Below, piece after piece: positions 55,568-64,000 of a stretch of DNA of 64,000 bases. Where the stretch lies: the NCBI GenBank assembly GCA_965116905.1, contig OZ220732.1, positions 864,001-928,000 of the forward strand, in the 5' to 3' direction. The notes beneath the pieces are model-generated. The model was not told the origin of the DNA. It did no database searches and worked only from the letters and a program-made list of their open reading frames with translations. Within the stretch, counting starts at the first letter, position 1. Each line of letters starts with the position of its first letter. Position numbers and translations under genes: made by a program. The stretch comes from Longimicrobiales bacterium. GTDB lineage: Bacteria; Gemmatimonadota; Gemmatimonadetes; Longimicrobiales; Gaopeijiaceae.

Positions 55568-55719
55568 GGTGGTCTCGCGCCGTGTATGGTGGGAGGTGGA
55601 CCGGCCAGCATCTTTGAGGCCGGTGAGAAGCGAGGTGTACAAAAGATAGTACGGTGGCACGCCGCATGGGGTCGGCGCAGGCCCCTGAAACCTCTCGGTT
55701 CAGTTCACGGGAGACACCG

Positions 55720-56037
55720 CGGACCGCCGGGCGCAAGAACGGGCTGGGCGGGGGCCTTAGGTAGTGATCCTGGACCGCGCTCGTCCGGCGATTCTGGTTG
55801 ACGAGTTGAGTGACCTGGGTTCGCGGGTAGCCCGTCACCTTGTCAAGAAGCCGCTTCACCAAGCCCTTGCCATCCCCCTCGGAGCCGTGTCAAAGGGGAG
55901 ACCAGCGTCTGGCGAACGAAAACGTAGGCGAGGTCCAGTCCGCCGACTTCGATGTCGACCGCCTCCGTTCCCCCTCGAAGCAAGGCCCGCCTGTACCCGA
56001 GGATCCGAATCCGTTCGGCGTGAAGTATCTCGATCAT
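55720..56037 (-). pseudogene. Degraded N-terminal fragment of an integrase-domain IS transposase
   Basis: MIEILHAERIRILG...TEAVDIEV...AYVFVRQTLV in one frame continues in another frame as VKRLLDKVTGYPRTQVTQLVNQNRRT...PPPSPF. This resembles the N-terminus of a transposase family recalled as KGLVKRYLxKVTGxSRAQxTRLI. No catalytic domain is present. Confidence 0.6.
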
Positions 56038-56654
56038 TCGCAAAGGACATCTTCGCCCTGCGCCTAGGCTCACCTTTTGCTGGAGACCGCCCTCGCGTTG
56101 AGCTCATTTCTGGTGGTGGACGACTCATAGTTGCCTGAGATCGGTGGACAGGATACCTTGTCGGGGGCGTAGCGGGGGGCAATTCGGGAAGCTCGGCGAG
56201 TTGGCGGATGTGCCTAGGCGACCCGAGGCTCGGGATAGCTTCTGCACCCGCCCAAATCCATCCGTCGCGCCATTAGGCCTTCGTGAGGGCTGGCGCGGCA
56301 CTCCCGCGTTTCACTGCGACGAAGATACGGCGATGATCCGAGACTGACCCGCTTCTCCTATTCCATGCTCTATACCGACAAGAACAGATCACGCTCACGA
56401 CTTTGGGTAAGGTTGTGCAATCATTTGATGTCACACAAACACCAACTCGAATGCCTTTCGCCTATCGAAGCTTAACTGTGCAATCGCAATTGGGGTTGCT
56501 GCCATTCAAGCGCTTTGTCACTTAGGCGGCTAGAGGATCCGACGACCCCGCGAAACCAAGACCGCTATTCACTTCTAAGTGGGGTGCAAAAGTATGTGCA
56601 ACGCGCCCAGCCGACTTTGAGGACAGAGTCGCCGATGACAAAAGGAATTGCCTC

Positions 56655-57218
56655 ATGAGCAAGACATCGGGAAGTGGCACAGAACGGGAGGAAGACCTGA
56701 TCAATGAGGTTGAAGATTGGGTACGGAAGTGCTGGCTCAACATGGTGGGCGTTGCCAAGCGCCAGGGATGGGAGGCGGATGAAGCCGAGGACATAGCGCA
56801 GAGTGCCGCAGTGACGGCGCTCGAAATTGCAAGGCACGAGCCGGAACGGTTGGGCGCGGTGCGGGATATCTGCTGTCGGTGGATGTGCGGAGTCGCTTGG
56901 AACGTAGGACGGGCTGCTCGCACGAAGAGCGAGAGGCGGAAGAGGATTCTGCAGGAGAGCGCTCAGGAAGTCCGACAGATGCTCGCTCCCAGATTCGAGT
57001 CGGATGGGATGATGAGCTCTCGGTGGGTCAGAGTTTGGGATGCTGCGGGGAGGGCTCTTCCTCCGCGGCAAGCGGAGGTCGTCCGACTGATCCTGCAGCG
57101 CCAGATGGATGACGCCGAAGTGGCAGCGATACTCGACATCTCGGAGACGACTGCCCGGTGGCACCGAAATGAGGCCACCAAGACCCTGAGGCGAGTCCTG
57201 AGCCAGCAAGAGCAGTGA
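56655..57218 (+). CDS. Divergent ECF-like sigma-70 factor
   Basis: AAAGGA RBS; region 2-like EAEDIAQSA...RWMCGVAWN; region 4-like LPPRQAEVVRL...DAEVAAILDISETTARWHRNEA. Confidence 0.75.
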   Translation: MSKTSGSGTEREEDLINEVEDWVRKCWLNMVGVAKRQGWEADEAEDIAQSAAVTALEIARHEPERLGAVRDICCRWMCGVAWNVGRAARTKSERRKRILQESAQEVRQMLAPRFESDGMMSSRWVRVWDAAGRALPPRQAEVVRLILQRQMDDAEVAAILDISETTARWHRNEATKTLRRVLSQQEQ

Positions 57219-57551
57219 GTCTCGAAGATTGGCTTAGCCCAGCTAAGCGAGGGAGGCGAGCCCTCAACTCGAGTTCTCGATGCCCATTGACAGGTTTGGG
57301 CTATCTGGCGTCGATAGAAACTGCGCGCGCGGGCACGTCTTGCGCTCATCGGTGGCCTCCACCGGATGATGAATCTGGCGCCGGGCCACGGTGGCCGACC
57401 CAACAGAATGGATCCTTCATGACCACTATAGGGTAGATCGGCGGGCACGTAACAGTAAGCCGCAGCACCCGGAATGGCAGCAGCCAAAGCGAAACCAACC
57501 GATGATTCTCCTCCAACTTCGCGGGACGCCGCTGGTGTTGGCACTCCCAAT

Positions 57552-58160
57552 ATGAGAAGCGCGCCGTTGCGTTCTCGGTCATGGACGGTGGCCGTCAGCG
57601 TTCTTCTGATCACCGCGACCGCGCTCATTGTACGGTCCAGATCCGTAAACCGGGAATTGCGAGCTTTCTTTGAGATCCAAAGCTCAATCGCCGCGCGAAC
57701 GACGACTCACGACCGCCTAATCGGCACACGAGTGCCATCGCATCTTCGGGGTCAATTGGCCGAGGCTGCGGCAGTTGCTACAGATCAAGGTGCTCGGCTG
57801 CTTTGGATCGTCGACACCGACCGCTGCGGGCGTTGTCTGACCGACGGTTTGGGGGCCTGGAACGCGCTGGCCAAAGACAGCACCCTGGTGAGACAACTGG
57901 TGGTAGTAGGCGACGCCCCGGTTCCTGAGGAGGCCAAGCGTGCGCTGCGAAGTACTCCGGCGATTTCCGTGACCAGGGAAGACCTCCGGACCACGTTCGG
58001 ATCGCTGCTTCCCAACACTAAGATGCTAATAGACGGCAAGGGGATCATTCTCTTGGCCGATTCAAGAAACACCGGCTCGGAGTGCGGCTGGAGCTTCGAT
58101 GCCCAAGTGGGCGCCCTACGTGGGGCGCTCGCTAGCGAACTTGTCCGCAATCAACCTTAA
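57552..58160 (+). CDS. Membrane-anchored thioredoxin-like CxxC protein
   Basis: N-terminal TM helix; LLWIVDTDRCGRCL after a beta-strand; late LPNTKMLIDGKGIIL hairpin typical of redoxin folds. Start is 57552 or 57474. Confidence 0.55.
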   Translation: MRSAPLRSRSWTVAVSVLLITATALIVRSRSVNRELRAFFEIQSSIAARTTTHDRLIGTRVPSHLRGQLAEAAAVATDQGARLLWIVDTDRCGRCLTDGLGAWNALAKDSTLVRQLVVVGDAPVPEEAKRALRSTPAISVTREDLRTTFGSLLPNTKMLIDGKGIILLADSRNTGSECGWSFDAQVGALRGALASELVRNQP

Positions 58161-58179
58161 GATCCGAAAGGGGATCGAA

Positions 58180-58425
58180 ATGGACAGAGTCATCGAGCTT
58201 ATCCGGGTGGCAAGCGCAATCGCGTTGCTTGTCGCGATTACGGTCGGCTCCGGAACCCTAAGCTCAGCGTCCGCCGCAGGGTGGTGCGACGAGGCTGAGT
58301 ACTGCCATTGGGACACACCGGGAAGCTACGACGTCTATGGTGATGGGGAGATGATCGTCGCCTGCGCAACGTCGCACTGTGACTCCACGGAGCAGTGGTG
58401 CTGCCTCGACGGTGCCGAGCACTGA
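58180..58425 (+). CDS. Small secreted six-cysteine acidic peptide (81 aa precursor)
   Basis: AGGGGA RBS before ATG 58180; signal peptide ending ASA; mature AGWCDEAEYCHWDTPGSYDVYGDGEMIVACATSHCDSTEQWCCLDGAEH. Confidence 0.7.
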   Translation: MDRVIELIRVASAIALLVAITVGSGTLSSASAAGWCDEAEYCHWDTPGSYDVYGDGEMIVACATSHCDSTEQWCCLDGAEH

Positions 58426-58508
58426 CCTGGCCTTACTTGGGCGTGGGGGCAAGATCGGCCTTGGGTGCAGCGCAGCTCGAGTGTGTGGTTGCAACTACAA
58501 GTGGGCGG

Positions 58509-59672
58509 TTGCACCTGAGGCCGAAACCTCCAATCGATAGTTCTCTTACCGCACACGGCACGGCCACTGCCCACGGCACAAAATGCGGACCGGTTCCGCG
58601 AACCAGTTGGTTGTCGCTCTTCGCTATCGCCACTGTGCTCGCGGCCTGTGAGGCCGACCCCCACACGGTGCCGTCTCCGCCCTTCGACGAGGTCTTCGCC
58701 TTGGCCGGGACCGTCGAGTTGGCGGAATCACCGACGGATTCGGTGGCTCAAATCGGTATGTTCCGGGAGCGCCGAGCCGGCGGATTCCTCATTTCCGACA
58801 GGCTGCTGCCTCGGATACGTCGCTATTCGGAAGACGGCGCGCTCGAGGCTGCGTTCGGGAACTTCGGCGACGGCCCGTGGGAGTTCCGCCGTATGGGCGG
58901 GTTTGCGGAGACGACCTCTGGACACGTCGTGGTGGCCAACTGGCGCAATTCGTGGCTCAGCTATCTGACGCCGGCGCTGACTCCGGACACCATCGTTCCG
59001 GTTCCGGGCTTGGCGGTCTTCGGAGTGGAAGCCTTCGCCGATGGTGTGATTCTTTACGGAGTGAGAAGCGTCGTGCTGGCCACCATGGGCGGGCGCGAGG
59101 AACGTGGACACCTTCATCGGCTCGTCGCCGATTCGATTGCATGGAGCGCATGGACTTCGAGGACTGACGACAAGCCCTACTGGAACGGCCTGGGTGGCGG
59201 TCGCTCGGTGACCATCGCCGGTGATTCAATATTCGTCATGGAACCACTGCTCTACCCCGCCACCATCCTGAATGGTGCGGGCGATTCCGTCGGCACCATC
59301 GGCTACCCATCCCCCTCCTTCCGCCAGATACCGGAGATTCCGCGTGGCTATTTTGCAGGCGAGCAGAGCGGGTCAAGGGTCCGGGAGGTGTTGCGGAGCT
59401 ACGACCTGGTGAGGCGAATCAATGTCGTCGCAGACGACTACCTGGTCTTCACAATCGGTCGGCCGGATCCGGCGAAACCCACGTTCCCATTTCGCAAGAT
59501 GGACACCGCTGTGGAGGTTTACGATCGCCGCTCTGGCGAGAAGCTCTACAGGGACGTTGACCTTCCGGAGGGGTCGAAGGTCCTCGGCGGGGGTCGCTAC
59601 CTGTACGTGCTTCTCGATCCAGATTTTCCGCCTTGGCGCATCGCGAAATACCGGCTATTGGCCGAAGACTGA
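58509..59672 (+). CDS. Six-bladed beta-propeller (NHL-like) lipoprotein
   Basis: Lipobox LAAC (Cys codon 58647); NHL-like FLISDR...IRRYSEDG...FGNFGDGPWEFRR. True start uncertain; the ORF is open from 58395. Confidence 0.7.
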   Translation: MHLRPKPPIDSSLTAHGTATAHGTKCGPVPRTSWLSLFAIATVLAACEADPHTVPSPPFDEVFALAGTVELAESPTDSVAQIGMFRERRAGGFLISDRLLPRIRRYSEDGALEAAFGNFGDGPWEFRRMGGFAETTSGHVVVANWRNSWLSYLTPALTPDTIVPVPGLAVFGVEAFADGVILYGVRSVVLATMGGREERGHLHRLVADSIAWSAWTSRTDDKPYWNGLGGGRSVTIAGDSIFVMEPLLYPATILNGAGDSVGTIGYPSPSFRQIPEIPRGYFAGEQSGSRVREVLRSYDLVRRINVVADDYLVFTIGRPDPAKPTFPFRKMDTAVEVYDRRSGEKLYRDVDLPEGSKVLGGGRYLYVLLDPDFPPWRIAKYRLLAED

Positions 59673-59791
59673 TATCCGGGTCATAGCGTCCGGTAGCCGA
59701 CCTCGCCGACCCGCGTTATCTGGTGGCCCCCGCCGGGCGAGGGTAGAATACAGGCGCGAATCGCGTTGACCCCCCTGCCCGGAAGCCCCTC

Positions 59792-63413: not shown

Positions 63414-63827
63414 TCAACCACCTACGTGCGTTGGCACCTCGATACCCTTTGCGATTGCGGCCGCGGCCAATCTGCGGTCGAGCGTCGCGAGTGGCAGTTG
63501 CATGCGAAGGGCCAGCTCCAGGTACATCGCGTCGTAAACGGATAGCCCGTCCTCGTCAGCGAGCGTGAGCACCGCTTCCCAGACCCGGCCGGCCGAAACG
63601 GGTTCGATCTCCACCGGCAGACCCTTGAGGCTGTTGCGGACTCTCGTCCATTCGTCCCTGGTGATCCGGCCTCGGCTGGTGGCGACCCACAGGACGTTGC
63701 CCACTTCGATCGGCCAGAGAGCGGGAACGAATGCCCTGCCGTCGATCAGGGACTCACGCAGCCGATCGGTCTCCGGCGAGGCCTCGTCCGCGAACACCCA
63801 CGCCATGGTCACCGAACAATCGAGCAC
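63414..63827 (-). CDS. vapC: Type II TA toxin, VapC/PIN family
   Basis: (FV)LDCSVTMAW, WPIEVGNVL, LSVYDAMYLELA and LATLDRRL motifs. Confidence 0.92.
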   Translation of the reverse strand: MLDCSVTMAWVFADEASPETDRLRESLIDGRAFVPALWPIEVGNVLWVATSRGRITRDEWTRVRNSLKGLPVEIEPVSAGRVWEAVLTLADEDGLSVYDAMYLELALRMQLPLATLDRRLAAAAIAKGIEVPTHVGG

Positions 63828-63832
63828 GAACG

Positions 63833-64000
63833 TCAGCGTCTGCGGCCCTCTTCGATCATGTCGCGAATCGAGAGCCCGCCCAGGCTATGGGTCTTCTGGA
63901 AGGCCTTCAGATCCTCGATTGCGGCGCGGATCCTGGTCGTGTCGCGGGTCTTAAAGGGGATCAACTCCGCGACGGGGCGATTGTGTCTGGTGATGACAAA
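63833..64000 (-). CDS. Type II TA antitoxin, Phd/YefM family (3' part; starts outside window)
   Basis: Not in the ORF track. Manual translation FVITRHNRPVAELIPF...LSIRDMIEEGRRR*, directly upstream of vapC. Confidence 0.88.
   Translation of the reverse strand, partial: FVITRHNRPVAELIPFKTRDTTRIRAAIEDLKAFQKTHSLGGLSIRDMIEEGRRR

Follow-up and report, generated by a model that had tools for sequence, protein, structure and literature searches.

Disulfide-rich miniproteins are well known in animals and plants, and rare among described bacteria. In knottins (inhibitor cystine knots) the adjacent pair of cysteines is the third and fourth of the chain, and a Gly-X-Cys sequence at the fourth cysteine is a defensin motif. 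In Bacteroidales, small proteins of the NVEALA type (PF14055) are encoded beside six-bladed propellers of the DUF5128 type (PF17170), and these pairs are uncharacterised. Small chains can also be parts of enzymes: the light chain of methylamine dehydrogenase is matured by the TlpA-like protein MauD, and the small subunits MauA and QHNDH-gamma combine a conserved Trp for the quinone cofactor with a maturase gene.

Beta-defensins follow the motif C-X6-C-X3-5-C-X8-10-C-X6-CC, pair their cysteines 1-5/2-4/3-6 and are mostly cationic, as described in PMC6716921 and, for the motif, PMC12278569. Bacteroidetocins need a thiol oxidoreductase for their activity (PMC6671954), and orphan immunity genes are retained in Bacteroidales (PMC8432619). 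The terms 'NVEALA' and 'DUF5128' occurred in no searched paper, and a search of open-access papers by title and abstract returned nothing on the cassette described below.

The window is the whole 64,000-nucleotide stretch of Longimicrobiales DNA analysed here. An earlier note on it, made from the sequence, had pointed to a small ORF for an anionic six-cysteine miniprotein with a defensin-like ending. The three-gene cassette around this ORF, which that note missed, holds most of the information. Its order in Gemmatimonadota is redoxin, peptide, propeller lipoprotein, and the features of the locus are as follows.

55660..59780, no strand assigned: inserted island containing the cassette, flanked by the genes of a Bmp-family ABC substrate-binding protein and an SNF transporter; GC content 0.61 (window 0.67)
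56655..57218, plus strand: gene for an ECF-type sigma factor (TIGR02937, E 5e-10, just under the cut-off)
57389..57445, plus strand: 57-base non-coding piece upstream of the redoxin gene, 91% identical to a piece before the lone propeller in G014
57474..58160, plus strand: membrane-anchored TlpA/ResA-fold thiol-disulfide protein, the redoxin (alignment, model and fold search); the start may be ATG 57552
58167..58174, plus strand: purine-rich ribosome-binding site of the peptide gene, AAAGGGGA (from the sequence; similar sites precede homologous starts)
58180..58425, plus strand: gene for the six-cysteine miniprotein, 81 aa (ORF translation and family matches)
58180..58275, plus strand: predicted Sec signal peptide, 32 aa (sequence and heuristic: basic N-region, hydrophobic core, A-S-A before the cut)
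58276..58422, plus strand: mature peptide (predicted) of 49 aa; mass about 5,419 Da in the reduced state, net charge -11
58509..59672, plus strand: NHL-type beta-propeller lipoprotein (NHL similarity, lipobox Cys at 58650); start codon uncertain

The miniprotein gene and its family

The ORF, leader length, cysteine spacing and residue counts given in the earlier note proved exact, with a predicted cut after residue 32, between A-S-A and A. The mature part has the cysteine spacing 5,19,4,6,0 (C-X5-C-X19-C-X4-C-X6-CC) and contains six Asp and five Glu, no Lys or Arg, three His and three Trp. Its leader is signal-like, as had been claimed, and 35 of 40 family members pass the same heuristic of charge, hydrophobicity and AxA motif. 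All 13 of the aligned homologues share the start Met. An in-frame alternative start lies 27 codons earlier, at 58099, where it overlaps the upstream gene, and a start of this type is used in the database records of two relatives (P0002 and P0024). Because these records begin inside the upstream gene, mis-started annotation of such small ORFs does occur, in agreement with the earlier suspicion. A circular-bacteriocin match in NCBIfam (E 0.035; 14.5 bits, cut-off 30.7) is confined to the signal region and was rejected. The single RNA run, X3, has no coverage of the peptide gene and its contig skips it, and the strain in that run is therefore without the gene at this site; from raw-read run X8, 0 reads were placed.

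Judged from homology and selection in the sequences, the miniprotein ORF is a real gene. The cysteine motif alone is modestly rare (four genome matches against 0, 0, 2, 0 and 1 in five shuffles) and is weak evidence for its reality, which homology and selection carry. A check for paralogues, proposed in the earlier note, gave three in the source genome, making four family copies with the query. In a library of 1.84 billion proteins, 44 family representatives were found at E<=0.001; the six-cysteine pattern occurs in 37 of them, and four carry extra cysteines. All six cysteines, on whose conservation the earlier proposal hinged, are invariant in 40 of 40 aligned rows, which were chosen for the six-cysteine pattern. 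By profile search, the family is present in 13 of 53 genomes of the genus, a count excluding ten weak profile rows (E 0.001-0.009) that match the signal region only; in the phylum it reaches 20 of 401 genomes, spread over three families. Its named relatives belong to Gemmatimonadota/Longimicrobiales. The 'Bryobacterales' locus L029 was rejected as a case of transfer: this contig of 2.8 kb shares 99% identity with a locus from Gemmatimonadota and is likely mis-binned.

Selection acts on the mature part, with a pooled pN/pS of 0.45 in five close pairs (p=2e-6 against neutrality), indicating purifying selection, and values below 1 in 11 of 12 pairs. The cassette partners reach 0.24 in the five-pair comparison (Fisher p=8e-6), so that by these counts the peptide evolves faster than its partners, though under purifying selection. 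Only the six cysteines are invariant. The conserved core is C-X4-C-X6-CC, with the X4 loop in 38 and the X6 loop in 39 of 40 members; loop 1 ranges in length from 2 to 10 and loop 2 from 7 to 20. The query is an outlier in this respect, its loop 2 of 19 residues being longer than in most relatives (family median 11), and P0022, 72% identical to the query, has a loop 2 of 12. P0041, P0042, P0043, P0053 and L128 (G341) have seven or eight cysteines, the extra ones lying before the conserved core, which suggests a fourth disulfide in some. At L001:9402-9635 (G000:C1:367401-367634, minus strand), inside an array of four propeller genes, a paralogous peptide gene carries a 7-base tandem duplication directly after its ATG; the letters are identical in a second run, and the G048 orthologue is intact.

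The resemblance to defensins, from which the earlier note had started, appears superficial. Only the last loop matches, and 0 of 40 members fit a relaxed beta-defensin spacing (C-X5-7-C-X3-5-C-X8-14-C-X5-7-CC). Gly-X-Cys at the fourth cysteine is likewise found in 0 of 40. In Pfam the query matched no family at E<=1, and no defensin or bacteriocin model appeared among 13 members. The adjacent cysteines are the fifth and sixth in all aligned members, a different order from that of knottins. The family thus appears to be no beta-defensin by spacing, charge or profile, and no knottin by cysteine order. Of the three-disulfide knot proposed earlier, the disulfides survive and the knot does not: three disulfides are likely, because the six cysteines are invariant and the neighbouring gene encodes a CxxC thioredoxin-fold protein, but the terminal position of the CC pair is at odds with a knottin. 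The best of five models of the mature peptide is too weak to exclude a trans-defensin fold (pLDDT 68.8, pTM 0.42; the others 45-53), and it gave one Foldseek row at E 6 and none in VIA-align at Z>=2, which is no demonstration of a new fold. A profile search of PDB sequences with the peptide produced 0 matches, and the best ESM Atlas scores (0.76 and 0.80) point to unnamed clusters that are leads only. The miniproteins represent a new small-protein family, without a Pfam, NCBIfam or PDB match, in a recurrent and undescribed three-gene system.

The cassette, its island and asymmetric losses

All 32 peptide sites adjoin a propeller gene, 29 of them with the propeller downstream, and the redoxin lies upstream of the peptide at 23 of the 32. 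The profiles of the partners were built from the same loci, the adjacency having first been seen with the window proteins alone as queries; among the 32 sites G007b and G045 are identical, and kin are not independent. Starting from the redoxin, the peptide comes next after 13 of the 14 near-full-length copies in the genus, and all 5 metagenome loci detected through the redoxin contain both peptide and propeller. With the redoxin taken into account, peptide and propeller distances still correlate (partial r 0.27; permutation p 0.011), a weak effect in 14 cassettes whose kin are not independent. The ECF-type sigma factor is likely the regulator of the cassette here and is not conserved with it, and a paralogous cassette has an AraC-type HTH gene upstream instead, indicating that the regulator varies. 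The 57-base piece before the redoxin gene is a possible promoter, and neither a sigma-70 consensus nor a telling repeat was found in the island. The island genes include no exporter, of the C39 ABC type or other, and the window locus has neither an outer-membrane exporter by which the peptide could leave the cell nor a sensor kinase by which the lipoprotein could relay a signal, which tells against the reading put forward below.

The upstream partner has a CxxC motif at 57825-57836, invariant in 19 of 19 sequences, and a third invariant cysteine at 58083. Its confident model (pLDDT 84.6) matches thioredoxin-type proteins (Foldseek E 7e-6; VIA Z 10.9, rmsd 2.8 over 124 residues), specifically those of the TlpA/ResA/DsbE type; Pfam gave no thioredoxin match. 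Combining a modelled thioredoxin fold, the CxxC and an N-terminal membrane anchor, it is predicted to have the activity of this group. The downstream partner resembles the NHL domains of TRIM2/3/71 (E 2e-11; profile E 4e-21), and 2 of 22 propeller members match DUF5128 weakly. With NHL-repeat similarity and a lipobox Cys it falls among the NHL / DUF5128-type lipoproteins; its start, TTG 58509, was picked by comparison with the G014 orthologue. Propellers are net negative in 21 of 22 cases, and simple charge complementarity therefore fails to explain binding. Complex prediction of the propeller with the mature peptide scored 0.02 against a mark of 0.32 with controls that stayed unfolded, and weighs on neither side.

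In 16 of the 19 relatives' loci that match best, the genes flanking the island lie side by side, and the cassette is therefore an insertion. The remaining loci comprise two without the left gene and G014, which has the propeller alone. At the same site, G014 keeps an intact orthologous propeller, 89% identical, without sigma factor, redoxin or peptide and with the 57-base upstream remnant. Another strain, seen in a contig of run X3, is likewise reduced to the propeller: the contig leads from the flanking gene directly to the propeller, skipping those same genes, and is 85% identical on its left side and 97% on the propeller. At the left edge of the island (window:55795-56093), a 300-base piece is 70% identical to G000:C1:2677101-2677400; it has no NCBIfam match and is presumably an insertion-sequence remnant. 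In L010 (G014:C1:1064002-1067490), a truncated redoxin of the cassette family runs in frame into a different four-cysteine small protein followed by a DsbA-like gene, as if two peptide cassettes had recombined.

Peptide and redoxin are lost together, and the propeller persists alone. Counted over the 53 genomes of the genus, near-full-length propeller matches number 62 (79 rows) and peptide sites 17; the source genome has seven propellers. Every peptide-bearing genome also has a propeller match (13/13), and of the 29 genomes with a propeller, 16 lack any peptide match; peptides may go unseen where a genome is incomplete, and the peptide-less G001, G014, G057, G064 and G066 are single-contig assemblies. 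Redoxin remnants abut propellers in G055, G063 and G064. Orphan propellers show dN/dS of 0.11-0.24 against the nearest G000 relative, values that partly reflect the time before peptide loss, and they form tandem arrays in G000, G014 and G062. The converse arrangement is seen in G023, a complete genome in one contig, where redoxin and peptide are intact and the only propeller of the subfamily is split by group II introns. There, the propeller gene (L108:1670-8708) is interrupted by about 6 kb in which the opposite strand encodes at least two group II intron reverse transcriptases in tandem. This suggests that the propeller is no obligatory self-immunity protein, unless the G023 cassette is silent.

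Other small genes were seen in the same material. A genome-wide scan (G000:C1:154000-3929000) gave 22 matches, of which about 17 are plausible as small, exported, Cys-rich ORFs, in several patterns unrelated to one another; two (3178921 and 3179217) have four cysteines and end in C-X4-C-X5/6-CC, and several have DUF5128 propellers, DsbA-like or other CxxC proteins, or ECF sigma genes as neighbours. At L076 (G000:C1:3900342-3901963), a C39 peptidase gene and a redoxin-like gene adjoin a tandem row of five small ORFs, each with a signal-like leader and a CxxC...CxxxC mature part, in what looks like a separate bacteriocin-like cluster. At the end of the window (63414-64000), a PIN-domain gene and an upstream small antitoxin-like ORF form an ordinary toxin-antitoxin pair.

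A proposed role and its rivals

The reading put forward here starts from what was observed: the gene and its family, the three-gene arrangement, the fold class of each partner, the insertion of the island and the asymmetric pattern of loss. The peptide would be an exported, acidic, three-disulfide ligand that varies between strains, is folded by its own redoxin and is bound by a propeller that also serves against the peptides of neighbours, a proposal that falls somewhat short of an even chance. The peptide would be exported by Sec and cleaved, after which the membrane-anchored redoxin, lost with the peptide elsewhere, would form or shuffle its disulfides. The rigid cysteine core would then display variable loops, evolving about twice as fast as the partners. 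The propeller would bind the peptide and would be kept alone, often in tandem arrays, for sensing or neutralising the peptides of neighbouring strains in the same sponge. Because the redoxin disappears with the peptide, it behaves like a dedicated maturation factor, a kind of gene for which bacteroidetocin clusters offer a tested precedent; the propeller, because it stays after peptide loss, behaves unlike a maturation factor or an obligate subunit. The simplest reason for keeping a binder without its own ligand may be that others make the ligand, by analogy with orphan immunity genes. The split propeller of G023 and the anionic charge speak against a strictly self-lethal toxin, tentatively favouring a signal or a non-lytic antagonist. 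Against this proposal, orphan propellers could serve other small Cys-rich proteins or the host. Its extension to a strain-polymorphic system of communication or conflict among sponge symbionts, in which miniproteins on a new scaffold have their own redoxin and cognate NHL propellers and orphan arrays eavesdrop or neutralise, is a more doubtful possibility.

The host itself may be the target. The NHL-repeat protein would then be a eukaryote-like propeller with its own job at the surface and the peptide an optional effector, a receptor ligand or enzyme inhibitor acting on the sponge, the linkage of the two reflecting co-regulation or display without mutual defence. Matching runs are sponge metagenomes wherever a label is given (four runs with word shares of 0.05-0.09 were left out of the habitat evidence), and PMC5524777 describes an enrichment of NHL repeats in sponge symbionts and proposes them as host modulators. 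Propellers also survive without peptide, G023 has the peptide without an intact propeller, and the genome encodes many other small exported Cys-rich ORFs. However, the peptide is never found away from the propeller gene, its patchy presence in close relatives is a better fit to strain-level conflict than to a core host function, and neither Pfam nor profile searches of PDB sequences found a host target or eukaryotic homologue, which together make an action on the host unlikely. A peptide that binds or buffers Ca, Cu or Zn under an envelope-stress sigma factor, with the propeller as its partner in uptake or storage, is improbable. The ECF-type sigma gene upstream and the charge are in its favour: all 37 six-cysteine representatives are net negative (-1 to -13), and the query, at -11, ranks among the most negative 0.8% of 3,018 sequence windows taken from 142 exported-like proteins in the genome. 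Yet the family median of -7 is less extreme, at the 8.6% tail of a background whose median is -3, the upstream regulator varies, and no alignment column reaches 90% conservation for His, Trp, Asp or Glu, with His absent from 7 of 40 members. The cassette also contains neither a metal transporter nor a Cys-modifying enzyme, and fast divergence of the loops would be unexpected for a chelator. The earlier argument from charge is upheld in part: conserved negativity argues against cationic membrane lysis and is compatible with a ligand role, and the His and Trp that gave a hint of metal binding are not conserved.

The same charge bears on a membrane-killing bacteriocin of the laterosporulin/actifensin type with the propeller as dedicated immunity protein. 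The miniprotein recalls such peptides in its six cysteines ending in CC, its small size and the thiol oxidoreductase dedicated to it, a feature shared with bacteriocin clusters (PMC6671954); bacterial examples exist (PMC6989792), some reptile beta-defensins are anionic (PMC6716921), and orphan propellers resemble orphan immunity genes. A defensin-like killer nonetheless looks highly improbable, as neither the spacing nor the Gly-X-Cys fits any of the 40 members, no Pfam defensin or bacteriocin model was found at E<=1, all members are anionic and G023 keeps its peptide beside a broken propeller. A disulfide-rich small chain, a helper of the TlpA fold and a beta-propeller are also the parts of a periplasmic propeller enzyme, in which the peptide, with three Trp in the query, would be a cofactor-bearing small subunit like the methylamine dehydrogenase light chain or the quinohemoprotein amine dehydrogenase gamma chain. 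Trp is absent from 15 of 40 members, however, no MauG-type or radical-SAM maturase gene is present in the window cassette or island, and peptide-less propellers outnumber peptide-paired ones, which an obligate subunit would forbid. The enzyme-subunit reading is scarcely credible and already largely refuted.

Significance and comparison with known systems

The family brings a candidate folding enzyme and a candidate binding partner with it, so that the whole set is expressible and directly testable. Its pattern of loss, in which the redoxin goes with the peptide and the propeller stays, predicts that propellers, orphans included, bind family peptides with cassette-specific preference. If this holds, it would account for a large group of sponge-symbiont propeller lipoproteins that are so far uncharacterised, provide a ligand class for the abundant six-bladed propeller lipoproteins of Gemmatimonadota and Bacteroidota, and add a small, acidic, loop-tolerant scaffold. 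If it fails, what remains is a new family of small proteins, curated and with its start site corrected.

Among described peptides, beta-defensins share with the miniproteins a signal peptide, six cysteines and a final C-X6-CC, the six-residue fourth loop being present in 39 of 40 members. Their second and third loops are short then long (3-5, 8-10), whereas those of the miniproteins are long then short (7-20, 4-5), and the miniproteins are always anionic, bacterial and in an operon with redoxin and propeller. Laterosporulins and actifensins, as the accessible part of PMC6989792 describes them, are likewise small bacterial six-cysteine peptides with conserved cysteines, divergent loops and several paralogues per genome. 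They differ in having Gram-positive producers and proven antimicrobial activity, that part of the source mentions no propeller partner, and they show no sequence match to the miniproteins. NHLRC2/SOQ1 unite the folds of the two partners, thioredoxin-like and NHL propeller, and the NHLRC2 structure 6gc1 aligns with the redoxin at Z 8.3 (rmsd 3.4 over 129 residues); there the domains are fused, whereas here they are separate genes with the peptide gene between them and the propeller is often alone.

Bacteroidetocins (class IIf) offer a further parallel, since their Cys-containing peptide gene adjoins a thiol oxidoreductase that likely forms the disulfides (PMC6671954). That source gives them a double-glycine leader, an ABC peptidase-transporter, four cysteines and no immunity protein, in contrast to the predicted Sec-type leader and the propeller lipoprotein of the miniproteins, and the word 'propeller' is absent from its main text. 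Class II bacteriocins are marked by a double-glycine leader and a C39 ABC exporter, and the miniprotein has a Sec-type leader in an island without an exporter. The Bacteroidales NVEALA/DUF5128 pairs share the arrangement of a small exported Cys protein adjoining a propeller lipoprotein, although 0 of 13 miniproteins match the Pfam model PF14055. Overall, the peptide would work in the manner of other exported disulfide peptides that have a thiol oxidoreductase of their own, in a neighbourhood that resembles the NVEALA/DUF5128 pairs.
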